The notes beneath the pieces were generated by a model that did no database searches, had not been told where the DNA came from, and was given only the letters and a program-made list of their open reading frames with translations. DNA of 64,000 nucleotides, taken from the IMG/VR virus record IMGVR_UViG_2529292920_000018, positions 2,322 through 66,321 of that record; one strand, written 5' to 3'. The position numbers and the translations under genes were made by a program. This document shows, one piece after another, positions 236-60,105 of this stretch (the first letter of the stretch is position 1; the number at the start of each line of letters is the position of its first letter). This DNA comes from a virus (lineage: Duplodnaviria > Heunggongvirae > Uroviricota > Caudoviricetes).

Positions 236-237
236 AA

Positions 238-8580: not shown

Positions 8581-8677
8581 GATTGTGCTCCTGTGTAAGT
8601 TCAGGGCAGTATGTCGGGAGAAGCGCGTGACGGATATTAAAGGAGATTAAGAAGAAGGGGCCGGAGCCCCTGTGATG

Positions 8678-8959
8678 TCAGCAAGTGCGAAACCCCTTGC
8701 AGTTACGCAGGAAAGCGATGAGAAGCGTCTTTCCCTCAGATTTGCCGATGCCGGAGAACCAGTGGTCGGGAGGCTCCCATGCTTCAATCAAATCCGCCAG
8801 TTTGCGGGCCTTTGAACGTGTGCAGTCAATCGGGTCATTGGTTTTACGGGTATTAAAAAGGGTTTCCACCCCCGGAATATCAAGGAGGGTAAACCACGTA
8901 CCATTTGACATGCCCAGTGCCGCACATCGTCCTCCTTTATCCGTCAGTTCAACACTCAC
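8678..8959 (-). CDS. hypothetical protein
   Basis: 93-aa ORF between tail tube and chaperone. Confidence 0.35.
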   Translation of the reverse strand: MSVELTDKGGRCAALGMSNGTWFTLLDIPGVETLFNTRKTNDPIDCTRSKARKLADLIEAWEPPDHWFSGIGKSEGKTLLIAFLRNCKGFRTC

Positions 8960-8961
8960 CG

Positions 8962-26753: not shown

Positions 26754-28523
26754 ATGACCCCGGCACTGACTGAAAAACTGGTTGAAACAGCCCGCGCGGC
26801 ACGTGACGCGGGGCATGGTAAACGCGGTGCAATATACGACGCTGCCTGTGCTGAACTTGGCATGTCCCGCGCCACTCTGCTGCGCAGGCTGAAGGAGGTA
26901 TCTGTGACTGATAAACGCAAAAAACGCGCCGATGCCGGGCGCAGCGCCCTGACCCGCGACGAAGCCGCGCTGATATCTGCCACACTGCGTGAGGCCACCC
27001 GCAAGAACGGTAAGCGTCTCTATTCCATCGCAGATGCAGTGGAAACCCTGCGGGCTAACGGCTTTATCACCGCAGGCAGAACAGATGAAACCACCGGTGA
27101 GTTTTTCCCGTTGTCTGAAGATGCCATCAGCCGTGCTCTGCGTAACTATGGCCTGCACCCGGAACAACTGGATGCCCCTGCACCACATACCGAAGTGGCC
27201 AGTCTGCATCCCAATCATGTCTGGCAGATTGACGCCTCACTCTGCACGCTTTACTACCTGAGCAATGGACATAAAGGGCTGCAGGTGATGGACAGCGCGA
27301 AGTTCTACAAGAACAAGCCCGCTAACCTTGCCCGTATCGCCAGTGACCGCGTGTGGAGTTACGAGATTACCGACCATGCCAGCGGCTGGATTTACGTTGA
27401 GTATGTGACGGGCGCGGAATCAGGTGAGAACCTGTGTTCTGTGCTTATCAACGCCATGCAGGAGCGTGGCGGCGCAGACGTGCTGCACGGCGTGCCGAAA
27501 ATACTCTATCTCGACCCCGGCTCGGCAAACACCGCGGGTATGACGAAAAACATGTGCCGCTCACTGGGCATCGACCTGATAGCGCACAAGCCGCATAACG
27601 CCCGCGCCACCGGACAGGTGGAAAAGGCGCGTGACATTATCGAACGCAAGCTGGAGCCGGGTCTGAAGTTCCGGCCGGTTCACAGTCTGGAAGAACTCAA
27701 CGCGCTGGCCGCGAAATGGCGCAGCCACTTTAACGCCACGGCTGTTCACAGCCGCCACGGTAAAACCCGCACGGATATCTGGCTGAAGATTACTGCTGAG
27801 CAGCTGAAAAAAGCGCCTTCCGTTAAGGTATGTCGTGAACTGGCTGTGGCGGCACCAGAACTCCGCAAAGTCACGCCAAAACTTCGTGTCTCGTTCCGGG
27901 GCACTGAATTTGACGTATCAACGGTACCGGGCGTACTGGTTGGTGAAAAACTGATGATTACCCGTAACCCATGGCGCAGCGATGTGGCACAGGTGGTTCT
28001 GACTGGTGAGGACGGCCACGAGACGTTCTTCCTGGTCGAAGAGGTCAGAAAGAACGAGTTTGGCTTTGCTGAAGGCGCGGCGGTATTTGGCGAAAGTTAC
28101 AAAGCCCTGCCGGAAACCCCGGCACAGATGGCGGCAAAAGAAACCGAAGCGCTGGTTACCGGTACAGACAACGCCGCAGATGCAGCCGCCGCACGCAAGG
28201 CGAAGGCGCTGCCGTTCGGCGGGCGGCTTGACCCGTATAAACATATCGACGACACCACACTTCCGGCCTATATGCCGAAGCGTGGTCAGGCCTCTGACGT
28301 ACGCGGGCCGCGCACTGAACAACGTCCCATGACTCATGTGGAGGCCGCGAAAGCCCTGCGCGATAAGTTCAGCACCGACGGCCTTACCTGGACGCCGGAA
28401 CATTACCGCCAGTTAACGGCACAGTACCCGGACGGCGTACCGGAAGCCGCACTGGATGAAGTCATGGCCACGCTGACCACACCGGCCCGCAGCAGTGTTA
28501 TCAGCATTGTTAACGGCAACTGA
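26754..28523 (+). CDS. DDE transposase (Mu A-like, integrase-core fold)
   Basis: 589-aa ORF with HVWQIDASL and YLDPGSANT catalytic-core-like motifs; followed by an AAA+ target-selection ATPase. Confidence 0.8.
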   Translation: MTPALTEKLVETARAARDAGHGKRGAIYDAACAELGMSRATLLRRLKEVSVTDKRKKRADAGRSALTRDEAALISATLREATRKNGKRLYSIADAVETLRANGFITAGRTDETTGEFFPLSEDAISRALRNYGLHPEQLDAPAPHTEVASLHPNHVWQIDASLCTLYYLSNGHKGLQVMDSAKFYKNKPANLARIASDRVWSYEITDHASGWIYVEYVTGAESGENLCSVLINAMQERGGADVLHGVPKILYLDPGSANTAGMTKNMCRSLGIDLIAHKPHNARATGQVEKARDIIERKLEPGLKFRPVHSLEELNALAAKWRSHFNATAVHSRHGKTRTDIWLKITAEQLKKAPSVKVCRELAVAAPELRKVTPKLRVSFRGTEFDVSTVPGVLVGEKLMITRNPWRSDVAQVVLTGEDGHETFFLVEEVRKNEFGFAEGAAVFGESYKALPETPAQMAAKETEALVTGTDNAADAAAARKAKALPFGGRLDPYKHIDDTTLPAYMPKRGQASDVRGPRTEQRPMTHVEAAKALRDKFSTDGLTWTPEHYRQLTAQYPDGVPEAALDEVMATLTTPARSSVISIVNGN

Positions 28524-28533
28524 GGAGGGAAAC

Positions 28534-29700
28534 ATGCTGGTACTGAAGCAGCAACTGAAAGAGGCCCGTATTCCACAGGCGGTGGTGGCGAGAGCTGTCG
28601 ATGTTTCTGAGGCCACGCTGGCCCAGATTGTGAATCATAACGCGTGGCCCCGCACCAGCCCCGGAGAAGTGCGCCGGCGTCTTGCGTCCTGGCTGGAAAG
28701 TCAGGGGATTGATACAACGAAGAGTTTTGATGCTGTACAGGGCGCGGCCACGCCCCGTACAGCGGGTACCACAGATAAAACGAGCCTCAGTGAGGAAGAG
28801 AATATGTTACTCAAAAAACAGGTGTTATTTCCAGCAACCAAAAAAGCGTTTGGTCTTTTCCGTGACCCGTTCGCCGACGAAGCCATGCAGGGTTCTGATG
28901 ATGTGTTCACCACCCCGGATATTCGCTACGTGCGTGAGGCGTTGTACCAGACAGCCCGTCATGGTGGGTTTATGGCCGTCATCGGTGAGTCCGGTGCGGG
29001 TAAATCCACGCTGCGCCGCGACCTGACTGAACGTATCAACCGCGAGAATGCGCCGGTAATTGTTATCGAGCCATACATCATCGCTATGGAAGACAACGAT
29101 GTGAAAGGGAAAACCCTGAAGGCAGCAGCGATTGCCGAAGCCATTATCAGTACCATCGCACCACTGGAAAGCATCAGACGCAGTCAGGACGCCCGCTTTC
29201 GCCAGTTGCATCGCGTCCTGAAAGACAGCAGCCAGGCGGGGTTCAGCCACGTTCTGGTGATTGAGGAGGCCCACAGTCTGCCCATTCCGACACTGAAACA
29301 CCTCAAACGCTTTTTTGAGCTGGAGTCCGGTTTCAAAAAACTGCTGTCCATCGTGCTGATTGGCCAGCCGGAACTGGCGACAAAACTGTCTGAACGCAAT
29401 ATGGAAGTCCGTGAAGTCGTTCAGCGCTGTGAGGTGGTCGAACTTCTGCCTCTGGACAATAACCTTGAAGAGTTTCTGACGTTCAAACTGCAACGGGCCG
29501 GTAAACAACTGACGGACATTATGGACGCCAGCGCAGTGGATGCCATACGTGCCCGCCTGAGCAATCCGGGAAGTCATCGTAAAAATATGGTCAGCCTGCT
29601 GTATCCGCTGGCCGTCAGTAACCTGGTAATAGCCGCCATGAATCTGGCCGCTGAAATCGGGGTTCCACAGGTCAACGCTGACGTTGTCAAAGGGGTTTAA
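28534..29700 (+). CDS. transposition ATPase (Mu B / TniB-like AAA+)
   Basis: Walker A GESGAGKST, Walker B VLVIEEAH; start at ATG 28534 with GGAGG upstream. Confidence 0.8.
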   Translation: MLVLKQQLKEARIPQAVVARAVDVSEATLAQIVNHNAWPRTSPGEVRRRLASWLESQGIDTTKSFDAVQGAATPRTAGTTDKTSLSEEENMLLKKQVLFPATKKAFGLFRDPFADEAMQGSDDVFTTPDIRYVREALYQTARHGGFMAVIGESGAGKSTLRRDLTERINRENAPVIVIEPYIIAMEDNDVKGKTLKAAAIAEAIISTIAPLESIRRSQDARFRQLHRVLKDSSQAGFSHVLVIEEAHSLPIPTLKHLKRFFELESGFKKLLSIVLIGQPELATKLSERNMEVREVVQRCEVVELLPLDNNLEEFLTFKLQRAGKQLTDIMDASAVDAIRARLSNPGSHRKNMVSLLYPLAVSNLVIAAMNLAAEIGVPQVNADVVKGV

Positions 29701-29702
29701 TA

Positions 29703-29972
29703 ATGAAATCCACCACAGGTATCAACCAGCAAATCAGCAAAGTGCAGTCAGCCATTATGGCGCTTAAGGCGACGAACACGGATGTACAAAGCATCACCAT
29801 CAGGGGTAACAAACCTGTCATCCGCGTTTCCCGGAGTGCGCATTGCATGCGCATGCTTGAGCAGGGAAAGGCCTGTTATCTGTATACCGGTCATGACCAC
29901 AGGGGACATTTCCGTCAGGGCGTTTTCGAACTGCACGGCTGTCGCGTCGTGTGGCCGGAATCTTTGTGGTAA
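29703..29972 (+). CDS. hypothetical early protein
   Basis: 89-aa ORF immediately after the B-like gene. Confidence 0.45.
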   Translation: MKSTTGINQQISKVQSAIMALKATNTDVQSITIRGNKPVIRVSRSAHCMRMLEQGKACYLYTGHDHRGHFRQGVFELHGCRVVWPESLW

Positions 29973-29999
29973 TCAGCACAACAGGAGGAGTCATAAAAT

Positions 30000-30530
30000 A
30001 TGGCAAAAAGTACAAAAGGGGCAAAACGTATCAAAGCCGCAGCAGCACTCTGGGTGCCGGGGACACGCGAAGAGGTCATTGAGGGAATCAGACTGCTTGG
30101 TGACGCGCAACGTGAACTGGTCAGGGCTGAAACAGAAATGAATGACACCATTGGCGACATCACTGCACGTTATGCCCCGCTCACCGAGAGCCTGAAAAAA
30201 CGCATGGCCGAACTGCAGTCCGGTATCCAGACATGGTGTGAGGCGCACCGTGATGAACTGACCGGCAACGGGAAGGTGAAGTTCGCTAACCTCACCACCG
30301 GCGAGGTGCAGTGGCGAAACCGTCCGCCGTCAGTCAGCATTCGCGGGGCGGATAATGTCATTGAACTGCTGAGACGTCTGGGGCTTGAGCGCTTTATTCG
30401 TGTAAAGGAGGAAATAAATAAAGATGCCATTCTGAATGAAAAAGAGGCTGTGAAAAATATTCCCGGTATTACCATAAAAAGTGATATTGAGGATTTTTCA
30501 ATAATTCCTTTTGAGCAGGATGTGCAGTAA
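30000..30530 (+). CDS. gam: host-nuclease inhibitor Gam-like protein
   Basis: 176-aa ORF with Mu Gam family features. Confidence 0.7.
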   Translation: MAKSTKGAKRIKAAAALWVPGTREEVIEGIRLLGDAQRELVRAETEMNDTIGDITARYAPLTESLKKRMAELQSGIQTWCEAHRDELTGNGKVKFANLTTGEVQWRNRPPSVSIRGADNVIELLRRLGLERFIRVKEEINKDAILNEKEAVKNIPGITIKSDIEDFSIIPFEQDVQ

Positions 30531-30627
30531 ACACACCACGTTAATTATTTAATAAAAACATTTTCTTTTTTATTCCGGCGTCAGCGCCGCGGGCTTCTGC
30601 ACGCCGGAAACAGAGGAGAATTAAATT

Positions 30628-30822
30628 ATGATATTTAAATGTATTCAGTGCGAGAGGGATATAACAGCCCTGCGTTTTCACAGCGCCATCGCCGTGATGT
30701 CCGGTAAGTATCACATACCTGCAGTACGTGTCACCCTGGTCTGCCCGTACTGCAGCCAGCATTTTTCGGCGGACGTGCCCGTCATGGAATTCTCCCGCCC
30801 TGACAGGGAGGACGCGCAATGA
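30628..30822 (+). CDS. small Cys-rich zinc-ribbon protein
   Basis: CxxC ... CPYC motifs in 64 aa. Confidence 0.4.
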   Translation: MIFKCIQCERDITALRFHSAIAVMSGKYHIPAVRVTLVCPYCSQHFSADVPVMEFSRPDREDAQ

Positions 30823-31091
30823 TTACCCCACAGGAAGCACGACAGCGCACCCGAACTCTTGTTGAACACTATGTCAACGAGTGTGAATGCCGCGACCTCA
30901 CCGATGTGAAGCACGTCCTGACGGCGCTAATCAGCATGGTCACACAGGCCATTGTGGCGACCAACGGAAAGGAGGCTGCCCTGCAGGTACTGATGAACAC
31001 ACTCACCCACACGGCAGAGCATGAGGTGCCGTACCGGATGGAAACCACTGCAGAAGGCGGCCTGCACATCACCGTCAGCCGGAAGCACTGA
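30819..31091 (+). CDS. hypothetical protein
   Basis: 90-aa ORF overlapping the upstream stop by 4 nt. Confidence 0.4.
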   Translation: MITPQEARQRTRTLVEHYVNECECRDLTDVKHVLTALISMVTQAIVATNGKEAALQVLMNTLTHTAEHEVPYRMETTAEGGLHITVSRKH

Positions 31092-31100
31092 GGGCGCGGC

Positions 31101-31397
31101 ATGACACGAAACACCGAACTCACCCGCACCGCCCTCTACCGTCTGGCCCTGCAGCGTTTCGGGCCGGACGCACAGGCCCTGAAACTGGCAGAAGAGGCCG
31201 CTGAACTGGCGGCCAGTGCCGCCCGCAACCTGAACGGACAGGGCAGCGAAAGTGACCTCGCGGCAGAGCTGGCAGACGTGGAAATCATGACAGAGCAACT
31301 GCGCCTTCAGGGGATGGACCGGCTGATTGACTTCCACAAACAGAAAAAACTGGAACGTCTGGCTGCACGACTGGGCGTGATTTACACGAACGAGTAA
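31101..31397 (+). CDS. MazG-like nucleotide pyrophosphohydrolase domain protein
   Basis: EEAAEL ... AELADVEIM all-alpha NTP-PPase-like motif pattern. Confidence 0.45.
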   Translation: MTRNTELTRTALYRLALQRFGPDAQALKLAEEAAELAASAARNLNGQGSESDLAAELADVEIMTEQLRLQGMDRLIDFHKQKKLERLAARLGVIYTNE

Positions 31398-31411
31398 CCG
31401 GGAGGCATTCA

Positions 31412-31627
31412 ATGGCTGACATACTCAGGGAAATCACCGCATGGACACTGATTCTTACTGGCCTGGCGACATGCCTCAGTGCGGGGGCAGCCCTGGCTGC
31501 CCTGCTGATGCACATAACAACACAGTGGTTATGGGAAAAGCTTAAAGCAGCATACAGCCTGAAAGAGCTGTCCGACGCTGTCCGGGCATGGAAACGGCAG
31601 AAAAATACCGGAGATACAGAACAATGA
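31412..31627 (+). CDS. small membrane protein
   Basis: 71-aa ORF with one TM helix. Confidence 0.35.
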   Translation: MADILREITAWTLILTGLATCLSAGAALAALLMHITTQWLWEKLKAAYSLKELSDAVRAWKRQKNTGDTEQ

Positions 31628-32307
31628 CAGACCAGAATAAACACATTGAGAAACTGAAAAAGTTGCTGGCGCTGGCCGCATCCGGCAACCCGCACGAGGC
31701 CGCTCTGGCACTGCGCCGAGCCCGTAAACTGATGGATGTTCACGGCATCACACATTCCGACATTGCTATGAGTGATATTGATGAAACCATCAGTCACTAC
31801 TGGCCGACAGGCAGTCTCCGTCCACCGCGCTACATGCTGGGCCTGATGAACATCATCCGCGAGGTATTTGGTGTTAACTCCATCATTCACCCCGGCACGC
31901 ATCCGTCTGTGGGGTTCTACGGCAACCGGGAACGTGCGGCACTGGCTGCATACACCTGGGAAGTGCTGGCCCGTCAGCTGAAAAAGGCGCGTCAGCAGTA
32001 TATCAGTGCACAGAACAAAAGAATAAAAACCGCCACCCGCACCAGCCGTGGAGACCAGTTTGCCGAAGGCTGGGTGCTGGCCGTTATCAGTGAAATACAG
32101 TCCTTTGCCCTGACCGATGATGAGCGTGAACTGATGCAGCAGTGGCTGGAACATAAATACCCGCAGACGCAAACCACCAGGGCGCGTAAACCGGGAAGAA
32201 GCCGCAATGGCGACGCCTCGCGCTATGCGGGGTTTCGTGAAGGGCAGAACGTCAGACTGCACCGCCCGGTCAGTGGGCAGGAACAACAGAAACTGGAGGC
32301 CAGATGA
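31624..32307 (+). CDS. DUF2786-like protein
   Basis: N-terminal IEKLKKLLALAASGNPHEAALALRRARKLM motif; start set at ATG 31624. Confidence 0.5.
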   Translation: MTDQNKHIEKLKKLLALAASGNPHEAALALRRARKLMDVHGITHSDIAMSDIDETISHYWPTGSLRPPRYMLGLMNIIREVFGVNSIIHPGTHPSVGFYGNRERAALAAYTWEVLARQLKKARQQYISAQNKRIKTATRTSRGDQFAEGWVLAVISEIQSFALTDDERELMQQWLEHKYPQTQTTRARKPGRSRNGDASRYAGFREGQNVRLHRPVSGQEQQKLEAR

Positions 32308-32523
32308 TTACGCTATCAGGTAAAAGCCGGAAATTAAAAGCCTGCCGAATATCTGCCAGATACCTTTTTGCCCGCGCCTTTTTTAAGAACGTCAGGCCGG
32401 GGATCACAATTGGTGTTATTGCCGGACGCGAACAGGTTGAAAAATACATGTCAGGTGCATGGTGGAATAACGACCCTGTCATTGCTGCCCGTAATATTCA
32501 TATCGAATGGGGAGGTATTCAGA

Positions 32524-32730
32524 ATGACTACTGAAACCATTGTCTGTTTTCTTTTCTGGTATATGTACGCAGGATCATGCAGCGCAAGACTTCATCGTTC
32601 CCTGGGCTATGGCAGGCACTACGACACCGCGCATTACATCCTGTACATGACCGCCGTCATGTTGTTCTGGCCAGTCACCCTGCCAGCTGCAACCGACATT
32701 GTTGCCGACAGACTGAAAAAAAGGAGATGA
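32524..32730 (+). CDS. small membrane protein
   Basis: 69-aa ORF with two hydrophobic helices, start ATG 32524. Confidence 0.3.
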   Translation: MTTETIVCFLFWYMYAGSCSARLHRSLGYGRHYDTAHYILYMTAVMLFWPVTLPAATDIVADRLKKRR

Positions 32731-32731
32731 T

Positions 32732-33181
32732 ATGCAGAAAAAACGCCTGATACAGCTTATCCATATTGCCCGTAATGAACTGGGTATGGATGAAGACACC
32801 TACCGCCAGATGTTACAGGGGCTGACCGGTAAAGCCTCAACCAAAGGAATGGATACCACACAACTAAACTGCGTGCTGGAATCCATGAAAAAGAAAGGCT
32901 TTCGCGTTAAACCAGCCAGAAAAGCCAGCTCCGGTTTACCGCTGGATAACCATCCGCAGTCCAGGAAAATTCGTGCGCTATGGCTTGAAATGGCTGCTGC
33001 CGGCATTGTTCGTGACCGTTCAGAAAATGCATTAGCGAGGTGGATCAAGCGGGAAACGGGCATCAGCGCCCTGCGCTGGCTCAGTACTGAACAGGCAAGC
33101 AGTGTTATTGAGAAACTGAAGAAGTGGCAGCGCAGAGCTGCGGGAGTCAAACATGAGCGACCTGAATCAGTTTCGAAGTAA
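32732..33181 (+). CDS. gemA: GemA-like regulatory protein (Mu gp16 family)
   Basis: 149-aa ORF immediately upstream of mor as in Mu. Confidence 0.7.
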   Translation: MQKKRLIQLIHIARNELGMDEDTYRQMLQGLTGKASTKGMDTTQLNCVLESMKKKGFRVKPARKASSGLPLDNHPQSRKIRALWLEMAAAGIVRDRSENALARWIKRETGISALRWLSTEQASSVIEKLKKWQRRAAGVKHERPESVSK

Positions 33182-33542
33182 GGGGCCGGAACTCCTGGTG
33201 GAACTGGCACAGCATACCTCTGAGACCGTTCGCGAGATTATTGATATTGAGCCCGAAGTTGCCGACCAGATTGGTCAGGCCGTCGCGAACCGAATGATGC
33301 AGGTCTGGGGCGGGCAAAACGTTTATTTCCCGATGGGCATGGTATGGAAGGTCAGTCAGCGCGACCGGGAAATCTTCAGGGAGTTTAACGGACGCAACCA
33401 CCACGAACTGGCCCGCAAATTTGGTGTTTCGCTTCAGTGGGTCTACAGCGTGGTTAAGCGGGTAAGAAAAGAAGAACTGGATCGGATGCAGGGCAAGCTA
33501 TTTGCTGATGAACCCGATGCAGATACGGAGAAAAAAGAGTAA
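33153..33542 (+). CDS. mor: Mor-family middle-operon transcription activator
   Basis: QVWGGQNVYFP ... ELARKFGVSLQWVYSVV Mor/C-family C-terminal HTH. Confidence 0.75.
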   Translation: MSDLNQFRSKGPELLVELAQHTSETVREIIDIEPEVADQIGQAVANRMMQVWGGQNVYFPMGMVWKVSQRDREIFREFNGRNHHELARKFGVSLQWVYSVVKRVRKEELDRMQGKLFADEPDADTEKKE

Positions 33543-33571
33543 TATCTGCAATCAGGCTGGCGCGAGTTCTG

Positions 33572-34376
<805 letters not shown>

Positions 34377-34377
<1 letters not shown>

Positions 34378-39516: not shown

Positions 39517-39575
39517 CCGTTTAACTCCGTGGTTAATGGGTGAGTGGTATTTTCAGTTGTGCCGGAGATGTCAGG

Positions 39576-40175
39576 CTATTTGTCCCGGTTGGCTAAGGGA
39601 TGACACAATTTATTCTTTGTCGCTGATGAGGGAAATTTTTTATAGAGCGTGGACAGGCCAATATCAAAAATCAGTGCCACGCGTTGACGTGACTCCCCTG
39701 CAGCCAGCAAACGCCCGGCCTGCTCCCACTCACTCGCGGTGAGTTTCGGTCGTCTGCCACCAATACGACCTTTGGCTCTGGCCGCTTCCAGTCCGGCGCG
39801 TGTCCGCTCGACAATGAGTTCTCGCTCCATTTCAGCCAGGGCACCCATCACATGAAAGAAAAAACGCCCCATCGGTGTGCTGGTATCAATAGCATCCGTC
39901 AGGCTGCGAAAATTAACGCCGCGTTCGCGCAGTTCCTCAACCAGAATGACCAGATGCCGCATACTACGCCCCAGCCGGTCCAGCTTCCAGACCACCAGTG
40001 TATCCCCCTCCGATAATGTCCTGAGCAGTTTTTTCAGTCCCGGTCGGTCGGACTTCGTGCCGCTGATTTTATCCTCAAAAATCAGCTCACATCCTGCGCA
40101 CTCCAGCGCGTTACGCTGCAATTCCGTATTCTGGTCATTTGTTGACACGCGTACATAGCCAATAAGCATGAGCAT
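39576..40175 (-). CDS. site-specific DNA invertase, serine recombinase (Hin/Gin/Pin/Cin family)
   Basis: N-terminal IGYVRVSTNDQ catalytic serine motif and C-terminal HTH; adjacent to invertible segment. Confidence 0.9.
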   Translation of the reverse strand: MLMLIGYVRVSTNDQNTELQRNALECAGCELIFEDKISGTKSDRPGLKKLLRTLSEGDTLVVWKLDRLGRSMRHLVILVEELRERGVNFRSLTDAIDTSTPMGRFFFHVMGALAEMERELIVERTRAGLEAARAKGRIGGRRPKLTASEWEQAGRLLAAGESRQRVALIFDIGLSTLYKKFPSSATKNKLCHPLANRDK

Positions 40176-40250
40176 CCCCCTGAATAAAAACCGGAGATGA
40201 TGCCAGTTAGCCGTAATCTCTGCATTTTCTTAAACGTTGGTTTGGGAGAA

Positions 40251-40769
40251 GGTGCTCCAGCTATTGGCGTTCCGTTCTTCTGGCCGTCCGCAGCAATGCC
40301 AGATACCGTAATCGATAGCTGGTCCAGCATGGTGTTTTTGAAGTTCAACGGCGCGAAATTCTCTGCCACTGATTACCCTGTGCTGGCGAAAGTGTTTCCG
40401 GCGCTGGCATTACCTGACGCACGCGGTGATTTCATTCGTATCTGGGATGACGGGCGCGGGATTGATGTCGGACGTACCCTACTTTCAGGGCAATCACACA
40501 CAATTATGGATCATGCGCACAATATGGAATTGTGGACGGGGGACGGGCTTGCCGCAGGAAGTGCACGGGAAGGAGTAAACCCAGGAATACTGGCTACATA
40601 TGGTGACGGGGGAATAGTTAAAACGGACGAACCCGGTCTTAGGGTGCCTTCCTCACTACGAGCTCTTAGCTCTCGTAGTGTTAAACGTTATGGTGAAATT
40701 AGTGGAAATGTAGGTACAGAAACCCGTCCACGAAATATTGCATTTAACTTTCTGGTGAGGGCTAAATAA
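40251..40769 (+). CDS. silent alternative tail-fibre C-terminal cassette (no own start; would fuse to H after inversion)
   Basis: Reading frame runs through the crossover site encoding GLGE exactly as in H (..AYLGLGE..). Confidence 0.6.
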   Translation, partial: GAPAIGVPFFWPSAAMPDTVIDSWSSMVFLKFNGAKFSATDYPVLAKVFPALALPDARGDFIRIWDDGRGIDVGRTLLSGQSHTIMDHAHNMELWTGDGLAAGSAREGVNPGILATYGDGGIVKTDEPGLRVPSSLRALSSRSVKRYGEISGNVGTETRPRNIAFNFLVRAK

Positions 40770-41362
40770 TGAAACCTGTTTTTGATGAAAATGGGCTGGC
40801 TACAGTACCGGGTAATATGCGTTGTTTTTATTATGATGCTGAAACATCTGAGTATACGGGCTGGTCTGATGAATATATTAATACTGGTGTAAGTATGCCC
40901 GACTGTTCCACTGGTATTGACCCTGGCGAATACATTCCGGGGAAAGTGGCAGTATTTACGGGTAAGGGATGGAGCCATGAAGAAGACCACCGCAATGAGA
41001 CTGTTTACTCAATCGAAAATGGCGCAGCTGTTACAGTGGATTATATCGGTGCCATCAAAGACGGTTATGTCACGCTTTCACCGTTAACGCCATACGATAA
41101 ATGGGATGGTGAGAAATGGGTGACGGATACCGAGGCACAGCATAGCGCCGCACTAGACGCGGCAGAAGTAAAGCGCCAGTCGCTGATTGATGCTGCAATG
41201 GCTTCCATCAGTCTGATTCAACTGAAATTACAGGCCGGGCGGAAGCTGACGCAGCCAGAAAACACCCGACTTAACGCTGTGCTGGATTATATTGACGCGG
41301 TGACGGCAACAGATACCAGCACCGCACCGGATGTCATCTGGCCTGAACTGCCGGAGGCGTAG
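40769..41362 (+). CDS. alternative tail fibre assembly chaperone
   Basis: C-terminal ...NAVLDYIDAVTATDTSTAPDVIWPELP parallels the end of the G gene product. Confidence 0.7.
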   Translation: MKPVFDENGLATVPGNMRCFYYDAETSEYTGWSDEYINTGVSMPDCSTGIDPGEYIPGKVAVFTGKGWSHEEDHRNETVYSIENGAAVTVDYIGAIKDGYVTLSPLTPYDKWDGEKWVTDTEAQHSAALDAAEVKRQSLIDAAMASISLIQLKLQAGRKLTQPENTRLNAVLDYIDAVTATDTSTAPDVIWPELPEA

Positions 41363-41774
41363 GCCATTCAATATCTGGCGCACCGGAAGTATCGACCAGT
41401 TCCAGTGCGTCCAGATAATCCAGCCACAAATTATATTGCACCAGTTCCTCACCTTTCAGGCGACCAATCGCCGCTTTACCAGGCCATTGCTTACTGTTTA
41501 TGTATTCGTTGACCTGATTAATCAATTGCTGCTTTTTCAGTTCGGCTGCGGCAATTTGTTCCTCATGAGTTGGCGGTGGAATATCAATCCATGCAGGCAT
41601 TCCGTCGATGACACCTCTGTATTTTCCTTCTGGTGCTTCCTTCATAAATTCGGCAGCAACAGTGTCGTCAATTTCGATTCCATCATCGGGCCATTCGCCG
41701 GATTCCTGATAAGCGATTTTAAGCTCCACAGGGAAAAACGCATTTTTATCGGCACTGAAAATATATTTCTGCAT
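41334..41774 (-). CDS. G: tail fibre assembly protein G (current orientation)
   Basis: 146-aa ORF after H; C-terminal ...NLWLDYLDALELVDTSGAPDIEWP. Confidence 0.8.
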   Translation of the reverse strand: MQKYIFSADKNAFFPVELKIAYQESGEWPDDGIEIDDTVAAEFMKEAPEGKYRGVIDGMPAWIDIPPPTHEEQIAAAELKKQQLINQVNEYINSKQWPGKAAIGRLKGEELVQYNLWLDYLDALELVDTSGAPDIEWPTPPAVQAR

Positions 41775-41776
41775 TT

Positions 41777-42961
41777 CTACCGTCCTATCGAAATATAACT
41801 GAATCTGTATTGCTGTGAGATATCACTGGTTGCCACACGCCACGCTGAATTACTGATATGTTCAAAATTTACAGACAAAACCTGCGGGGCAGGAATCGAC
41901 GGGTCTGACTGAACGGCATCAGACATAACACTGACTGAAACCATCGGCTGATTAGGGAATGGTATAGGGAAGTGTCCACTGATAAAGCGGGTCGTGTTTC
42001 CTGCAAAAGTGCCAAACTGAACAATATATCCACCTGGTAGCCTGAACCATCCCGAACCAGAAGCGAATGCTCCCATATCCGGTATCTGATTATCTCCTGT
42101 GCCCACATTCCGTTTTGCCGCTTCTCCCAAACCAAGGTATGCGAGAAGACCGGCAACATCCTTTCCACTCAAATGAGTCAGCGTATTGTCCAGCGGTTGT
42201 TTACCTGCCAGCGCATTGTTAATGGTAGTGCTGAATTTCGGGTCATTGTTAATGGCCGCGGCAATTTCTTTCAGTGTGTCCAGCGTGGCTGGCGCGCCGT
42301 TAATCAGAGCGGTAATAGCAGCCTGAACAAACTCAGTGGTCGCAATCCGCGTGGTGTTATTTCCTGCGGCAGGCGTCGGCGCTTTTGGTTCTCCGGTAAA
42401 TGTCGGATTATGTTTCTGTGCATACTGGGTATGAGGATCCTGTGCGGCAATGTGGTTTCTCATCTGGTCATCCACATACAGCTTTAATTCCAGGACTTTA
42501 TCATCCACGTATTTACGGGTCGCCAGTACCACCGACGGGTCGATTTTCAGCGTGATGGCTTCGGTATTCGTGACAACCAGAATCATGCGGATAGTCTGGG
42601 TACGACCACTGCCTTCCTGCAACTGCGGTTTGTACGTTTCCGGGCAGTTCGCCACCGCAATGAGTACGCCTTCATCATCATAAAGCCCAATCTCACGGAT
42701 CCAGAATCCGCCCTCGTTCTCAGGGATGATTTGCTCCGCAATAATCTGGCTCTGGTTGTTCGGGTCAACACTCAGAAGATTCAGCGGCGCGATGCGTTTC
42801 TGGTTAATCAGTTTTGTCTGTGCCGGGTCTGGTGTCGGCAAGACACCATTCGCATCACCAACGGCCATTTGCGTCAGATTCAGCTTACTGCCGAGCATCG
42901 TCGCGTTAGCCAGCCGTGCTGCGCCCTGATTAGTCAGAATGGCGTAGTATTTCACTGTCAT
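41777..42961 (-). CDS. H: tail fibre protein H (constant N-terminus plus currently expressed variable C-terminus)
   Basis: N-terminus with MAVGDANG...GGFWIREIGLYDDEGVLIAVAN as in the P2 H family; crossover site inside the gene at 42122..42147. Confidence 0.85.
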   Translation of the reverse strand: MTVKYYAILTNQGAARLANATMLGSKLNLTQMAVGDANGVLPTPDPAQTKLINQKRIAPLNLLSVDPNNQSQIIAEQIIPENEGGFWIREIGLYDDEGVLIAVANCPETYKPQLQEGSGRTQTIRMILVVTNTEAITLKIDPSVVLATRKYVDDKVLELKLYVDDQMRNHIAAQDPHTQYAQKHNPTFTGEPKAPTPAAGNNTTRIATTEFVQAAITALINGAPATLDTLKEIAAAINNDPKFSTTINNALAGKQPLDNTLTHLSGKDVAGLLAYLGLGEAAKRNVGTGDNQIPDMGAFASGSGWFRLPGGYIVQFGTFAGNTTRFISGHFPIPFPNQPMVSVSVMSDAVQSDPSIPAPQVLSVNFEHISNSAWRVATSDISQQYRFSYISIGR

Positions 42962-54889: not shown

Positions 54890-55049
54890 CGCCCGCTTCA
54901 TGGGGCGGTTTTAATGCAGTTGCATTACCATACAGAAGTACTGCCACGTCTGACAATTCATAGCTAGAATGTATAGCATATGTTGCATGCAAAATAATGC
55001 ATATAAAGAATGCTTTTCACTCAATACTTCATCATACGATTTTGTTGGC

Positions 55050-55832
55050 TCATTTTAGAAGCCCTATTATAGCTGCAATCATACTTCCTACGCCGCCGAC
55101 TGCTGCGAAAAAAGTAGCCCAAAACATTTTCTTCTGAGTACTCAAATTCTCTCTGTACCGCACCTCATCTTTATTGAATGTAGATATTGTGTTCAGTGCC
55201 TTTCCTGTTGGCCTAAATCCACTACTTGTTTCAACAAGATCTCCATTCTGAACAAGAGAATTCAGGCATAAACGAAGCTCTTTACGCATCCTGTTTTTAT
55301 CGTCATGGTATACCCATAAACTACCAGCGACTTCGGTCATTATTGAAAACTCACTAAACACAGTTTGAGCATCCCATTCACGATACATTCTTATAATCGT
55401 TGAGAGAACAAACATCACATCAGTTATTTCTTTTTTTTGCTGTCGATAAATATATTTTTCACGACTAAATTTTATATTTTCATAATTAGACCTTACTCTA
55501 AAGAACAACTCCCTTAAAAATGTTAAATCATTTAAAGAGTTAAATCGCAACTCATGCGCACGGTAGTAGTAAACACCAAAAAAAGAATCAGGCGTAACCT
55601 CAGAAATATCCAAGCATGAACTTATATGAAATCTACGCTCCTCATCATCCCATTTAAAAGCCTTTATCTTCCCATCAACCAAACAGTCAAAGAGGTATTC
55701 TGTATCATTTTTATCTTTAATATATACAGAGTACATATCATACTTAATCGCGTTTTCATATAACAAACTAATACGGCCATCATCTGGCGTTCTTTTCTTA
55801 TCAAACTTCTTAAGTTGGTTTATAACTTTCAT
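55050..55832 (-). CDS. hypothetical cargo protein with C-terminal membrane anchor
   Basis: 260-aa ORF in an AT-rich island; C-terminal TM MFWATFFAAVGGVGSMIAAIIGLL. Confidence 0.5.
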   Translation of the reverse strand: MKVINQLKKFDKKRTPDDGRISLLYENAIKYDMYSVYIKDKNDTEYLFDCLVDGKIKAFKWDDEERRFHISSCLDISEVTPDSFFGVYYYRAHELRFNSLNDLTFLRELFFRVRSNYENIKFSREKYIYRQQKKEITDVMFVLSTIIRMYREWDAQTVFSEFSIMTEVAGSLWVYHDDKNRMRKELRLCLNSLVQNGDLVETSSGFRPTGKALNTISTFNKDEVRYRENLSTQKKMFWATFFAAVGGVGSMIAAIIGLLK

Positions 55833-55941
55833 AACATTCTCGCAGTGCTAATCTCATACGCAACAAATCTCGGCTCTGCCGCTCTAATAGTCAAAAAATG
55901 CCGACACCCAATTAAATATTCAGCGTCGGCATTGTAAGATA

Positions 55942-56673
55942 TCAATTATCTATGATTGATATCACCTTACCAGTTTTTATATCAACACGCGCAGCAATCG
56001 TCTGTTTCACCACTCCGCCATAAGCATTTTTTCCGCGAAACGTGGTTTTCACAATGGCATGAGGGTCTTTATTCAAAACCAGATGATATACCGTTGACAC
56101 ATGTTTATAAGATGAATCATCGTTCATATTATCTTTAATTAGTTTTTCCAATGGACGATAAGAACCATCCCAACCACTAAAATTACTCTGAAATGTATCA
56201 AGATTGATTTTATTGTTTAGTGAATTCGGGTCATTTTCATAATCATTAAAGCACCACCCAAGAACATCACCGAGTTTCAACTCATCATCTTTGGTAAATG
56301 TATATTCACTCATGCAGGCATAAAACGCATCTGACGCGGTGGCTGGAACTTCCTTAAAATCAATGTAACTATTCACAATATCGTGTCGTGTTTTCTTTGA
56401 CTCGTTCCGATATTCCTTGAGTGTTTTTTTACCATATTTGAATGTTTTTTGGACTTTATGTTCTGCAACGGTTGATGTTTCAGTTTTATCAACTGGCTGG
56501 CTTTTTTCTGTTGGATAGAGTATTGAACCAATTATGCTCAATACAAAACCTCCTCCGAGATAAACCGCACTTGCACGTTTGCGGTTTGGCATTCGCACCA
56601 GTGATGGCTTGATTAACCCGATGAAGAAAGCAACGAAAAAAGCGAGTGATAGAAAAGCGATTATAGTATCCAT
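55942..56673 (-). CDS. hypothetical cargo membrane protein
   Basis: Start at ATG 56673 with AGGA 7 nt upstream; two N-terminal TM helices; AT-rich codon usage. Confidence 0.5.
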   Translation of the reverse strand: MDTIIAFLSLAFFVAFFIGLIKPSLVRMPNRKRASAVYLGGGFVLSIIGSILYPTEKSQPVDKTETSTVAEHKVQKTFKYGKKTLKEYRNESKKTRHDIVNSYIDFKEVPATASDAFYACMSEYTFTKDDELKLGDVLGWCFNDYENDPNSLNNKINLDTFQSNFSGWDGSYRPLEKLIKDNMNDDSSYKHVSTVYHLVLNKDPHAIVKTTFRGKNAYGGVVKQTIAARVDIKTGKVISIIDN

Positions 56674-56896
56674 AGCTATCCTTTTTGCATCATCCACATA
56701 AAAAATCGACCTCATGTTAGCAACAGGATGCTTACTTTTGAATATTTGTAAGTTGTTAGCTCTCCAACCTAACTCCTTTCAACCGTCAAAAACCGGCACC
56801 AACGCAGTAAAAATATGTCTGTCAACTAACGCCTCGCTACGCTCGTTGTTCAACCCCGCCAGCCCTGAAAACAAGTTTCACGACTGGCGGCGTTCT

Positions 56897-57115
56897 CTAT
56901 CGTCTTCGTGGTGGTGGCGCAACTCTGGACTGACCGATATAGTTAAGCCGCCCGTAATTATCCCGAACTATTTCGGCACACCCGACCAGCTCATCGGGCG
57001 TCAGATTTTCGTTGACCATAATCCGCTGTAAACGCTGAACAATAGCCATCAGCTTGATATTTTTAGTTTTATGGTGCGGTATCTCGCCTGGTATTCTGTG
57101 CATTATCCAAGCCAC
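56897..57115 (-). CDS. hypothetical small protein
   Basis: 72-aa ORF overlapping the end of the upstream gene; weak support. Confidence 0.25.
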   Translation of the reverse strand: MAWIMHRIPGEIPHHKTKNIKLMAIVQRLQRIMVNENLTPDELVGCAEIVRDNYGRLNYIGQSRVAPPPRRR

Positions 57116-57558
57116 CCGTTTTGCTTTGCACGCTCCACCTGTTCATCTGAATAGTTCCATATCCCATCCGCAGCAACCACTGCCCCGCCAGACAGCCCCG
57201 TCTCTGGTTCATACATAACAGCAAGGCCGAGCTGATGCATAATTTCATGATTAATTCTGAATACCAGACCACGTTCACTAAGTTCTTTCCAGTTCACAAT
57301 CTTATATGCGCCCGTATTAAGCAGCTCAATACTTAGCAAGACATAATCTTCCAGCCAGTCTGACAGGTCAGTAACATCTGTTATCCGGGCTTCAACCTTT
57401 CGCCCCGTAAACACACCCTGCACCCATTCATGCAAAATCAACGTGTCCCCGCGCTCATAATTACGGTCATTTTTCCGAAACTCTGCGCGTTTTTTTCCTT
57501 CCAGTACAAGGTCGAAATATTTTGCGTGCAGCTTTACCTCGTGAATTTTTGCCATCAT
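57103..57558 (-). CDS. ASCH/DUF3850-like domain protein with HExxH motif
   Basis: N-terminal KIHEVKLHAKYFDLVLEGKKRAEFRKNDRNYERGDTLILHEW; INHEIMHQLG near C-terminus; GGAG RBS; start abuts the A stop. Confidence 0.5.
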   Translation of the reverse strand: MMAKIHEVKLHAKYFDLVLEGKKRAEFRKNDRNYERGDTLILHEWVQGVFTGRKVEARITDVTDLSDWLEDYVLLSIELLNTGAYKIVNWKELSERGLVFRINHEIMHQLGLAVMYEPETGLSGGAVVAADGIWNYSDEQVERAKQNGWLG

Positions 57559-59840
57559 GTCCACTCCATTACTGTTGAGAATCCCGGCCACTCATCAGCG
57601 ACCGGATACGTGAATTTTTTCCCGTCATAATTTACGGTTGCCCCACGCGCCAGCGCCTCAAGCTCCCATCGCTGCGGCCTGATACCGTTCTGAGCAAGGT
57701 CAACGCGGATACGGGTAATTTGCATTCGTTCCGACCGGGTCAGTCTGGCCGATGGTGCCATTTCATGCGGTTTTAACGGGCTTCCGTTTCTTTGCTGGCG
57801 ATTTGGTGTTCTCAGGCCATGTTTTAATGCACCTCTGAGCGCCCTCACGACCTCCGGGTCATTCCATTCGATGACACCGTCATCAACCAGATTAAGCACT
57901 GCTGCGGCGTGCTCAGAAGGTGTGGGAGCTGGTAACGAAGTATCACCACCGGTGAGCTTTCCACAGTTATTGACAGGACTCCGAGGCGCGGCGATGCCGC
58001 TTTTTAAAGTCAAAGGCTCAACGACCGGAACTTTCGGCACAATGCGCCAGTCCGTCGTTCTGGTGATATGAATATGACGCGCGCCGAGATGCGGCGCGTA
58101 AATGCCGACCACTCTCTCGACTTCTTCCTCGTACTCGTTAACGTCATCCGACGGGCTACGGGCAACCCTGACAGTCTGACAATCGCGCGGGACATTTGCC
58201 CCACCCTGCGCGCTGATATACAACGCAAAATCACCACTGTCTGCGGCAGCGCGAGCAGCCTCGACGCGTTCGTCAAACTCATCAGCAATACTGACGCCGC
58301 GAGGCAATTTGCGTAGTTCACGGTAAGCCCCCATTGTCGGCAGTCCAACCGTTTTAAATTGCGGGATGCGCCACGTTGACGCCCATGCGGTAACAGCCGC
58401 GGCAGTATCTTTAAGCGGCTTACCGGTATCGTTATCGAGCTGACCATCCAGTGCATAGCCGTCGATATTTTTTGAAATGTATTTCGCGATATATCCCGCA
58501 GCACCGCCCCGGTTAAGGTGCTTTGCCTGAAAACGGTTTCGCGCTGCTCCTCTTTCGTCGCCATCCTCTTTGAGCGCATAGCGACGCATGATTTCAATAA
58601 TCTGGTTACGCTGGCGTGGATTACAAAAAAGCATCATATGCCAGTGCGGCGTTCCGTCGTGGTGTGGCTCAACGACACGCAAACCGTAGGCCTGTAAATC
58701 ATTATCCTTGAATGCCGTGCGCATCAGGCTCCAGATACGGCAGAGATAACGCTGCGCATCCTTTGGATTAAATGCCTCATGGTTCCAGCCGTGATTAAGC
58801 TGGACGGTTTTACTTTCGCCTTTTCCGACCTGACGTGTCGGGTGATACTTTGACGGCGCGGTCAGCGTGATAAACATCCCCACATCACCCTCTGCGGCGG
58901 CGTAACGCTCAATTCCGGCGATGGTGTTCATCAGCTCCATCCGGCGAATTTCTGGATTAGAAATACTGCCCATCACCTTACTGATAAGGTCGATGCGTTC
59001 GCCGGTTTCCCTGTTTTCAAGGTCACACGATTTAAGAAATTCCAGATTTGCCTGGCGGCGCGCACGCACATCACGAATAGCATGTTTACTGGCATAAGGT
59101 GAACGGTCTTTATTGACCTCCCCGACAGCAATCAGTAACGCCTCATGCCAACGCATACGCTGGCCTTTAAGCTGATGAGTCCACCACTCATCGTTAAACA
59201 GACGGGCAATGGCAGAATATGCCTGCCTCGTGGTCATCTGCCCTTTACGGTATTTTTTCCAGTAGAGAGGGGAAATATTGAAAGCACGTGCAGCGCCAGC
59301 AACATGACCATACAGGTGAGCCTGCGCCTCATCCGTAAACAGCGATTCTTTTTCGCCATGCGCATCCACCCAGGCATCGCAGAGTTCCTCATACATCATG
59401 AAAAGCTGCGATGAGATACGGGCGGCAAACTTTTTCAGCTCCTTGTCATTCATTCCCGGCAGGCGTGCATAGTGGTCACGCTCTGCCAAAAACAGCAACG
59501 ACGCGTCGGTGTTCATTTCATGGCGCTGATTCACACGCTCAATACGCGGCCATAAACGACGCTGAAAAGTGGATGTGAGGAAATAAAACCCGTGCACCGG
59601 GCTTTTATTGCGCCGGATGTAGTCATAGCGTGAAGTAAACAGCGAGCGCAAAAAATAAGGCAGGCGATTTATCGTGGATAAAACACCTTGCACCTGACGC
59701 ATCTCGTCACGTGTAAGGGGTCTTTCGCGCCCGACGGCCTCGCGTGGCGCGTTCCATGCATAAGCACCGGTAAACGCCTTACCGGTGCCTGCAGCAAATG
59801 CTGAAGGAGGGACAAAACGCCCGGAGGCTTTAACGGCCAT
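57555..59840 (-). CDS. A: replication initiation protein A (rolling-circle)
   Basis: 761 aa from ATG 59840 (MAVKASGRFVPPSAF...), very close to P2 gpA as recalled. Confidence 0.85.
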   Translation of the reverse strand: MAVKASGRFVPPSAFAAGTGKAFTGAYAWNAPREAVGRERPLTRDEMRQVQGVLSTINRLPYFLRSLFTSRYDYIRRNKSPVHGFYFLTSTFQRRLWPRIERVNQRHEMNTDASLLFLAERDHYARLPGMNDKELKKFAARISSQLFMMYEELCDAWVDAHGEKESLFTDEAQAHLYGHVAGAARAFNISPLYWKKYRKGQMTTRQAYSAIARLFNDEWWTHQLKGQRMRWHEALLIAVGEVNKDRSPYASKHAIRDVRARRQANLEFLKSCDLENRETGERIDLISKVMGSISNPEIRRMELMNTIAGIERYAAAEGDVGMFITLTAPSKYHPTRQVGKGESKTVQLNHGWNHEAFNPKDAQRYLCRIWSLMRTAFKDNDLQAYGLRVVEPHHDGTPHWHMMLFCNPRQRNQIIEIMRRYALKEDGDERGAARNRFQAKHLNRGGAAGYIAKYISKNIDGYALDGQLDNDTGKPLKDTAAAVTAWASTWRIPQFKTVGLPTMGAYRELRKLPRGVSIADEFDERVEAARAAADSGDFALYISAQGGANVPRDCQTVRVARSPSDDVNEYEEEVERVVGIYAPHLGARHIHITRTTDWRIVPKVPVVEPLTLKSGIAAPRSPVNNCGKLTGGDTSLPAPTPSEHAAAVLNLVDDGVIEWNDPEVVRALRGALKHGLRTPNRQQRNGSPLKPHEMAPSARLTRSERMQITRIRVDLAQNGIRPQRWELEALARGATVNYDGKKFTYPVADEWPGFSTVMEWT

Positions 59841-60105
59841 ATGAGCCAAAAGCCTCTGAACAACGCCTGCTGAGTTGCTCAACCTGCGCGTTTAAATCAG
59901 CAAAAGACTTTGCGCTTCCGGTCAGAATATCGTGATGCATCAGGCCGGAAACGAGCTGGCTTAATTTCGGATAATAACCAACCACTGCCAGCCATTCCTG
60001 ACCGGCGTTTTTACCGCTTTCCGCTCTCTTTTTCTCGTGGAGAATAAACTGAAAGCTGTCACTGGTAACGACATAACGTTCGCCAATTTCAATACGAATA
60101 CTCAT
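59830..60105 (-). CDS. hypothetical P2-type early protein
   Basis: 91-aa ORF upstream of A. Confidence 0.5.
   Translation of the reverse strand: MSIRIEIGERYVVTSDSFQFILHEKKRAESGKNAGQEWLAVVGYYPKLSQLVSGLMHHDILTGSAKSFADLNAQVEQLSRRCSEAFGSYGR

Follow-up and report, generated by a model that had tools for sequence, protein, structure and literature searches.

A serine invertase gene lies beside a short stretch of DNA that runs into tail-fibre gene H of a P2-like prophage, and the question raised by this locus is whether the stretch is an invertible host-range switch, as an earlier note on the sequence had proposed, and what such a switch could mean for the prophage that carries it. The window (the whole stretch of DNA analysed, 64,000 nt) contains what is, with high probability, a two-state inversion switch of the Gin/Cin/Pin/Hin family occupying the Z/fun slot that separates G from FI. 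The P2-like identity given in the earlier note is upheld by the gene order around the switch, V-W-J-I-H-G ... FI-FII-E-T-U-D, and by the late promoter pF, the region of which is near-identical to the annotated P2 pF from TTAGCCAACC onward, with one mismatch, and forms the left edge of the acquired module. No tRNA genes were found in the window. The features of the locus are collected in Table 1.

Table 1. Features of the switch locus, in window coordinates (nt).
Feature	Position	Strand	Remarks
P2 late promoter pF region, upstream of FI	39517–39625	-	overlaps last ~13 invertase codons
Serine DNA invertase, 197 aa, catalytic Ser9	39576–40169	-	Resolvase catalytic domain and HTH_7
Putative Fis-dependent recombinational enhancer	40080–40151	-	nt 19–90 of invertase gene
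Invertase-proximal 26-bp crossover site, pix/hix-type	40225–40250	-	central dinucleotide 40237–40238
Invertible segment, ~1.9 kb	40237–42135		two fibre tips and two chaperone genes, convergent
Variable tip B, silent: GLGE + 172 aa, StfE-like / tail-collar-fibre type	40237–40769	+	
Chaperone B, silent, 197 aa, TfaE-like	40769–41362	+	Caudo_TAP 8e-26
Chaperone A, gene G position, currently expressed, 146 aa, TfaP-like	41334–41774	-	Caudo_TAP 9e-34
Variable tip A, currently expressed: GLGE + 114 aa, gp53-like C-terminal domain	41777–42135	-	PF21882 9e-8
Second 26-bp crossover site, within gene H	42122–42147	+	central dinucleotide 42134–42135, in H codon L276
Constant part of tail-fibre gene H, ~aa 1–276, outside segment	42136–42961	-	

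Judged by its sequence, the recombinase is an intact serine invertase of the Gin/Pin type, and its gene adjoins the left crossover site, as the earlier note had it. The open reading frame reaches 40175, and homologues begin at the second ATG. The protein matches PF00239 (2e-52), PF02796 (1e-12) and PHROG 125 'DNA invertase' (6e-101), and aligns over its full length with the Gin crystal structure 3UJ3 (E=1.7e-94). Its closest relative is PinE of the e14 P segment, in the cryptic prophage of E. coli K-12 (87% identity), followed by P1 Cin and Mu Gin (78–80%). In NCBIfam, the invertase had only sub-threshold matches, and the fibre and chaperone proteins had no match at all. Every residue that is invariant among Gin, Cin, PinE and the enzyme of enteropathogenic strain E2348/69 (EPEC) is retained, including Ser9 and the DRLGR motif. 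Residues Q150, R153 and L154 are likewise invariant, and K46, K47 and R50 are basic; we take these to be the equivalents of Hin Q151/R154/L155 and 47/48/51, a numbering offset of 1 that comes from our own alignment to the Hin sequence. In Hin these residues make Fis/enhancer contacts and are conserved in Fis-dependent invertases (PMC3798978).

The earlier note had suggested looking for a Fis-type enhancer in the 5' region of the invertase gene, and a candidate is present there by homology: an ungapped alignment with the enhancer annotated in P1 cin has 57/72 identical positions. It contains two 15-bp G...C cores (40134–40148 and 40085–40099; invertase gene nt 22–36 and 71–85), the spacing of which is the same in gin, cin and pinE. 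Both cores are kept in gin and pinE; the first has a terminal A in place of C in cin and in the EPEC gene. The centre of the nearer core is ~97 bp from the crossover point, similar to the enhancer-site distance of ~100 bp at the native hin locus (PMC3798978). Synonymous-codon conservation is 0.56 in the putative enhancer versus 0.41 elsewhere in the gene (from non-independent sequence pairs), and is only partly independent evidence because the element overlaps codons for the best-conserved stretch of the protein. By analogy with the characterised systems, the switch would be expected to depend on Fis.

An inverted repeat with arms of 27 nt (40225–40251 and 42121–42147; 81% complementary, spacing 1869 nt) encloses the segment. 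Read on the minus strand from 40250 to 40225, the invertase-proximal site is TTCTCCCAAACC AA CGTTTAAGAAAA, and the second, on the plus strand at 42122–42147 and within the codons of H, as earlier proposed, is TTCTCCCAAACC AA GGTATGCGAGAA. The two are thus true inverted repeats at the places where hix/gix-like sites of 26 bp had been reported, each with an AA core and a 12-2-12 architecture (two imperfect 12-bp half-sites and a 2-bp core). Their longest exact run in common, TTGGTTTGGGAGAAG at 40237–40251, is 15 bp and not the 16 bp of the earlier description. The left copy matches the 16-bp e14 repeat TTGGTTTGGGAGAAGG given in PMC12529663, and the 14-mer TTCTCCCAAACCAA has two exact occurrences in the 64-kb window, one per strand, where 0.02 would be expected by chance. 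Both sites resemble those of e14 and EPEC and, more distantly, those of Mu and P1. On these sequence grounds, the two 26-bp sequences are true hix/pix-type sites. A search of the 64-kb window that tolerated 3 and 5 mismatches in the two half-sites returned no third crossover site. A shufflon or other multiple-inversion system (Rci-type, Min of p15B or the EPEC three-repeat P2 locus) was considered and rejected, as the window has only two sites, and an Rci-type recombinase was ruled out, the enzyme here being of the serine and Rci of the tyrosine type.

Short inverted repeats can in principle mediate inversion by general RecA recombination, the neighbouring recombinase then being incidental. 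Efficient RecA recombination usually needs ~20–25 bp, however, and the exact identity of 15 bp falls below this. The repeats also have the full architecture of invertase sites, matching those of e14, Mu and EPEC, and the recombinase is closely homologous to enzymes that act on such sites, so that this route has next to no chance of being the correct one.

The segment itself carries two alternative ends for H, each with a chaperone gene. The constant part of H has a Phage_tail_fib N-terminal domain (Pfam; residues 1–150, 1e-62) and is colinear with the corresponding regions of KL53 and IAL7250, both orientations included. In the present arrangement H is 394 aa long, with GLGE at residues 277–280 followed by 114 residues. 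Tip A matches PHROGs 2557, 1396 and 4209, the last two being tail fibre families, and in flipped genomes, where it stands apart from H, its RefSeq name is 'gp53-like domain-containing protein'. Tip B has neither its own start codon nor its own promoter (its frame is open only from 40188), matches PHROG 3100 (2e-50) and PHROG 523 'tail collar fiber' (3e-49), and is 42% identical to the C-terminal cassette of e14 stfE. Chaperones A and B, which are 56% identical to e14 TfaP and 61% identical to e14 TfaE, respectively, are encoded by convergent genes that overlap by 29 bp.

GLGE is encoded over the inner half-site in both fibre frames, as the earlier note had observed, and inversion in silico joins H to tip B in frame and without interruption, giving a protein of 452 aa. 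The proposed exchange of the end of H for a silent cassette therefore stands, the codon counts being 114 and 172 in place of about 115 and 173. The chaperone would be exchanged at the same time, as had also been proposed, since each tip has its own Caudo_TAP gene behind it. The search of H, G and their alternates against fibre families, which the earlier note had recommended, places the tips in different families with no similarity to each other, and both chaperones in Caudo_TAP. Given these unrelated tip domains and the precedent of Mu and P1, tips A and B would be expected to bind different receptors.

Both orientations exist among near-identical prophages of complete E. coli genomes. Four genomes match the arrangement of the window colinearly over all 3501 bp, and five others align colinearly, as a single piece, with a synthetic flipped version. 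In the comparison of the window with IAL7250, the inverted block is 40237–42138 and the flank alignments overlap only inside the sites; the natural inversion breakpoints fall in the sites, including the one in H. With probes for the invertase-proximal junctions, one state was detected in 250 genomes and the alternative in 216. Strains E5 and E7 carry segments that are inverted relative to each other and 99.94% identical, with one base differing in 1788. The possibility that E5 and E7 are sister strains with the flip as their only difference was rejected, as their flanks differ by 0.4–1.7%; the alignments indicate that they carry a common module in both states and do not reflect a single recent event. 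The earlier note had named a lone orientation with an inactive invertase, or false repeats, as grounds for abandoning the proposal, and what is found is both orientations among near-identical prophages, breakpoints in the sites and an intact invertase. The source strain is represented by a single assembled window, hence one orientation is on view, and the two-state evidence applies to the module across genomes; flipping in the source strain itself would be expected.

The sites and invertase could also be relics of a fossil switch, with the two orientations surviving as old, vertically inherited states. A single assembly cannot display flipping, gene D of the prophage is already broken, and a simple sigma-70 and terminator scan returned nothing above shuffle expectation and no convincing invertase promoter, all of which would suit a relic, but the invertase reading frame is full length and keeps all family-invariant residues, and both sites are intact with an identical central dinucleotide. 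The single base that separates the inverted E5 and E7 segments and the near 50:50 split of orientations over hundreds of genomes also argue against old states. Mate-pair sequencing and PCR have shown that the homologous locus of EPEC E2348/69 (NC_011601:2977580-2979467) flips in clonal cultures (Goldberg et al. 2014, PMC4272514, Table S1). Taken with this, a fossil is very improbable.

For an active two-state switch, the course of events would be as follows. Invertase dimers would bind both 26-bp sites, with Fis on the enhancer at the 5' end of the invertase gene aiding assembly of the complex, by analogy with Hin and Gin. The enzyme would then cut at the central AA/TT dinucleotides and rotate the 1.9-kb segment, leaving the constant part of H (aa 1–276) joined to the late operon. 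In state A, H would end in the gp53-like tip A (a 394-aa fibre), with the TfaP-like chaperone behind it, and in state B in the StfE/collar-like tip B (a 452-aa fibre), with the TfaE-like chaperone behind it. A population of lysogens would release particles of two receptor specificities.

The prophage around the switch is 97–98% identical to that of KL53 over two common stretches of 21.2 kb and 4.1 kb, with one gap each. The KL53 prophage is apparently complete, and the window differs from it in a break in gene D and in a cargo block (54925–57477). Colinearity of the window with KL53 throughout was rejected: only the prophage is in common, and this led to the finding of a Mu-like transposable prophage inserted in, and truncating, tail gene D of the P2-like prophage. 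The insertion is absent from the earlier note, and the fibre region of this co-resident Mu-like prophage lies outside the window. With gene D truncated, the switch may have no host-range consequence in this copy; the copy probably cannot build infectious tails, its host range is probably moot, and the switch probably still flips, on a crippled phage.

A prophage unable to make gpD might keep the flip for the benefit of the bacterium, with a fibre fragment masking a receptor against other phages or a tailocin-like particle being retargeted. The precedent is the homologous e14 P segment, inversion of which (PinQ/PinE; StfE2) is reported to block T2 adsorption (PMC12529663), and the resemblance of tip B (42%) and chaperone B (61%) to the e14 StfE cassette and TfaE points the same way. 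The 97–98% identity to the KL53 prophage, however, argues for a recent Mu-like hit and not for long domestication, and H belongs to the late operon, which is normally silent in lysogens. PADLOC gave no defence-family match for four ORFs examined in the prophage cargo region, which also counts against a host-serving role, and the chance that the switch is maintained in this way is slim. Pfam gave no match for three of the four cargo-region ORFs tested, and the ORF at 57103–57591 matches DUF3850, DUF7415 and ASCH. It is a similarly long shot that an active switch on the Mu-disabled prophage may serve the bacterium, for example through an StfE-like fragment that blocks phage adsorption, as e14 StfE2 is reported to do, perhaps driven in trans by an invertase of the co-resident Mu-like prophage.

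As a two-state phage switch, the system is already known, being an ordinary Gin/Cin/Pin/Hin member in the Z/fun hotspot of P2-like phages, where a DNA invertase is reported to be frequent (preprint 10.1101/2024.10.15.618418). The prior documentation of the arrangement in P2-like prophages is missing from the earlier note. The same module occurs at 97–99.5% identity in other sequenced E. coli. Related modules with an annotated DNA invertase are found in inducible phages such as pro483 (61% query coverage, 95.7% identity) and the P2-like phage of O157:H43 strain T22 (46% query coverage, 96.9% identity). This instance adds nothing conceptually new, the class having already been shown to flip, and illustrates textbook bet-hedging, in which lysogens release phages with two receptor-binding tips and so a wider host range. 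In annotation and phage engineering, the 'extra' ORFs for fibre and chaperone should therefore be regarded as an alternative cassette and not as junk. The practical value lies in correct annotation, as the RefSeq 'phage tail protein' and 'gp53-like domain protein' fragments are silent halves of one switchable gene.

Among known systems, the e14 P segment has the closest invertase. Its sites share the inner half-site TTCTCCCAAACC and the AA core with those of the window, the pinE-proximal one differing by 1 nt from its counterpart here. The layout is also alike: the invertase reads away from the segment with a site ~50–60 bp upstream of its start, and the convergent chaperone genes have a 29-bp overlap, with a TfaE-like/StfE-like cassette and a TfaP-like chaperone. 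The two segments are of similar size, 1797 bp in e14 (PMC12529663) and ~1.9 kb here. The e14 element is a lambdoid remnant with fragmentary or pseudogenic fibre genes, whereas the window has a P2-type myovirus with a full-length H, and e14 StfP has no detectable similarity to the gp53-like tip A. The P2-like locus of EPEC E2348/69 occupies the same slot by the sheath gene FI, with the order invertase, tip, chaperone, chaperone, tip. Its proximal site is identical over 26 bp and its invertase 81% and chaperones 57–71% identical, yet its tips are only 42–54% identical to those of the window, and this copy is a prophage remnant in which an integrase fragment replaces the constant part of H. At a second EPEC P2 locus, three repeats give four states, in contrast to the two sites and two states here. 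Mu (G/Gin) and P1 (C/Cin) likewise have a constant fibre N-terminus with two C-termini, each with its own chaperone, along with 26-bp sites and an enhancer within the invertase gene. Their segments are larger (~3 kb in Mu, from the annotated G-segment boundaries, and ~4.2 kb in P1, from the annotated segment), their cassettes (S/S', U/U') differ and the chaperone similarity is weak (~30%). The central dinucleotide is TC in Mu and AA here, and P1 cixL overlaps the 3' end of cin, whereas the proximal site of the window lies upstream of the invertase gene. Phage P2 (Peduovirus P2, NC_001895) has the same backbone order, pF promoter and FI-FII-E-T-U-D operon, with a single, non-invertible H/G pair; the slot that holds fun(Z) in P2 holds the invertase, second tip and chaperone in the window.

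A repeat search of the window recovered the inverted repeat claimed by the earlier note, with arms of 27 nt at 40225-40251 and 42121-42147 that are 81% complementary. Taken on the appropriate strands, the arms give two 26-bp sites built 12-2-12 like the crossover sites of DNA invertases, one proximal to the invertase gene (left site) and one inside the tail-fibre gene H (right site). The sites do share an identical core stretch, but the exact run is 15 bp and not 16 bp as first described. Within the 64 kb, the inner half-site together with the core has exactly two occurrences, one on each strand, where 0.02 would be expected. By their sequence the sites are of the Pin type: the left site is one base apart from the pinE-proximal site of e14, and the EPEC site adjoining the invertase is identical to it across all 26 bp.

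In both fibre frames the inner half-site, GGTTTGGGAGAA, translates as GLGE, as had been proposed. H (394 aa) has 114 residues past this motif and the silent frame has 172, and inversion of 40237-42135 in silico produced an H of 452 aa with an unbroken frame, consistent with the predicted exchange of its C-terminus. No similarity was found when the two fibre tips were compared with each other; the silent one belongs to the tail-fibre and tail-collar-fibre families of PHROGs (E-values down to 2e-50). Similarity between the two chaperones is confined to the C-terminal ~80 residues. Their convergent genes overlap by 29 bp (41334-41362), as tfaP and tfaE of e14 likewise do, and have in common a short inverted repeat (41281-41298/41407-41424) that encodes the conserved C-terminal LDYIDA/LDYLDA motif.

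Table. Features of the switch locus and neighbouring regions in the window.
Feature	Position	Strand	Sequence or basis
Mu-like prophage	1-33704, junction ~33704-33707		early region 28000-33704; inserted in tail gene D
Truncated P2 gene D	33673-34377	minus	colinear with KL53 gpD over ~226 residues only
Sheath FI, tube FII, E, tape measure	after invertase	minus	ORF map
Invertase	39576-40169	minus	Pfam Resolvase + HTH_7
Putative enhancer G...C cores	40134-40148 and 40085-40099	minus	invertase nt 22-36 and 71-85
Left site	40250->40225	minus	TTCTCCCAAACC AA CGTTTAAGAAAA
Fibre C-terminus without start, 5' of 197-aa chaperone	to 40769	plus	PHROGs tail-fibre/tail-collar-fibre
Chaperone, 197 aa	40769-41362	plus	Pfam Caudo_TAP
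Chaperone, 146 aa	41334-41774	minus	Pfam Caudo_TAP
H tail fibre	41777-42961	minus	ORF map; residues 1-150 = Pfam Phage_tail_fib
Expressed tip	C-terminus of H	minus	Pfam Gp53-like_C
Right site	42122-42147	plus	TTCTCCCAAACC AA GGTATGCGAGAA
V, W, J, I	ahead of H in gene order	minus	ORF map
Cargo ORF, 260 aa	55050-55832	minus	Pfam and PADLOC without match
Cargo ORF, 257 aa	55942-56715	minus	Pfam and PADLOC without match
Cargo ORF, 105 aa	56714-57031	plus	Pfam and PADLOC without match
ORF beside cargo region, 162 aa	57103-57591	minus	DUF3850, DUF7415, ASCH domains

Flipping is not visible in a single assembly, so related prophages were examined for the other state. The window arrangement is colinear across all 3501 bp in four complete E. 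coli genomes (closest KL53, 99.5%), and when 40237-42135 was inverted synthetically, the resulting sequence was colinear without a break with five others (97.7-97.9%). Pairwise BLAST placed the inverted block at 40237-42138, the flank alignments overlapping only inside the sites. In E. coli E5 and E7 the segments are 99.94% identical and lie in opposite orientation. Probes of 240 bp spanning the invertase-proximal junction placed the StfE-like tip (silent in the window) beside the invertase in 250 genomes and the gp53-like tip there in 216. Clonal cultures of EPEC E2348/69 carry both orientations at the P2 prophage locus NC_011601:2977580-2979467, the repeat of which is given as TTGTTTGGGAGAAG (Goldberg et al. 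2014, PMC4272514); this locus has the same gene order and proximal site as the window.

Over its full length the invertase aligns with the Gin sequence from the crystal structure (E=1.7e-94), and it shares 87% identity with e14 PinE, 78-80% with Cin and Gin, and 81% with the EPEC P2-remnant invertase. It retains every residue that is invariant among these enzymes, including Ser9, DRLGR, Q150/R153/L154 and the basic residues K46/K47/R50; the Hin equivalents of the last two groups are conserved specifically in Fis/enhancer-dependent invertases (McLean et al., PMC3798978). In the P1 record, the Cin enhancer is annotated at cin nt 19-90, a stretch over which the window, Mu, P1 and e14 invertase genes give a gap-free alignment (57/72 positions identical between P1 and the window), with two 15-bp G...C cores conserved in position. 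From the crossover point to the centre of the nearer core is ~97 bp, a distance similar to the ~100 bp between hixL and its proximal Fis site (PMC3798978). Because conservation of the protein is also highest in this stretch, synonymous codons were compared separately; among identical-residue pairs the fraction with the same codon was 0.56 in the enhancer stretch versus 0.41 elsewhere, a raised conservation that is indicative only, as the pairs are not independent. Fis would be expected to bind at this putative enhancer.

Just upstream of FI, in the slot where phage P2 has fun(Z), the window has the invertase and silent cassette. Conservation of the P2 late promoter pF extends to the stop codon of the invertase, the final ~13 codons of which thus run into the P2 backbone; the C-terminus of PinE is 13 residues shorter. 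Since the frame enters the conserved pF promoter/Ogr-site region at 39576-39625, with its TAG stop inside, the module meets the backbone inside the terminal part of the invertase gene.

Parts of the cassette region (40733-42147), comprising most of both chaperone genes and, in some records, fibre-tip sequence, match, at 96-98% identity, segments from phages differing in genome size, such as vB_EcoM-606R2 (42.7 kb) and the Klebsiella phages KP12 and Kp48xx. These matches would fit fibre and chaperone cassettes being exchanged horizontally among phage groups. In RefSeq, the switchable fibre of the relatives E5, E7 and IAL7250 is annotated as separate pieces ('phage tail protein', 'gp53-like domain-containing protein', and pseudogenes 'missing N-terminus'); annotation routinely mistakes the silent cassette for a broken gene. 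Between the replication and portal genes (named after the KL53 annotation), the window carries cargo (54925-57477) unlike that of KL53, where genes for a hypothetical protein and a Dam methylase stand at this position. Three cargo ORFs without matches in Pfam or PADLOC are possibly uncharacterised accessory or defence genes. The neighbouring 162-aa ORF, also without a PADLOC match, overlaps the 5' end of a long ORF (57555-59882).

Homology to the KL53 prophage ends at 33707, within gene D, where the window ORF diverges from the 387-aa KL53 gpD. The adjoining sequence (28000-33704) matches prophage early regions at other chromosomal positions with 99.9% identity; its counterpart in ETEC L4_E1441 has genes for a DDE-type transposase, a MuB-like ExeA ATPase, Gam, gp16 and Mor. 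At positions 1-9000 of the window, the opposite strand carries baseplate, tail and tape-measure-like ORFs. In L4_E1441 the same element end adjoins a truncated lambdoid tail gene, which identifies 33704 as a true transposable-element end. The P2-like prophage is split by this Mu-like insertion, a prophage within a prophage, and is probably defective and unable to make gpD. The switch itself looks intact in the window copy. Its effect on host range is probably moot here, which leaves a small opening for a role that serves the host, as reported for PinQ, PinE and StfE2 in e14 (PMC12529663); we consider such a role very improbable in the window prophage.

The sites, the enzyme and the occurrence of both orientations in relatives support the earlier note's reading of the locus as an invertible tail-fibre switch. 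The mechanism is that of Gin/Cin/Pin/Hin, here acting on a tail fibre in the manner of the Mu G, P1 C and e14 P segments, and the finding is an ordinary one: switches of this kind in P2-like phages are already documented, by the EPEC experiments and by deposited phage genomes in which a DNA invertase is annotated next to duplicated genes for fibre and assembly proteins, for example pro483 and a P2-like phage from O157:H43 strain T22, whose matches cover 46-61% of the 3.5-kb query with 96-97% identity.
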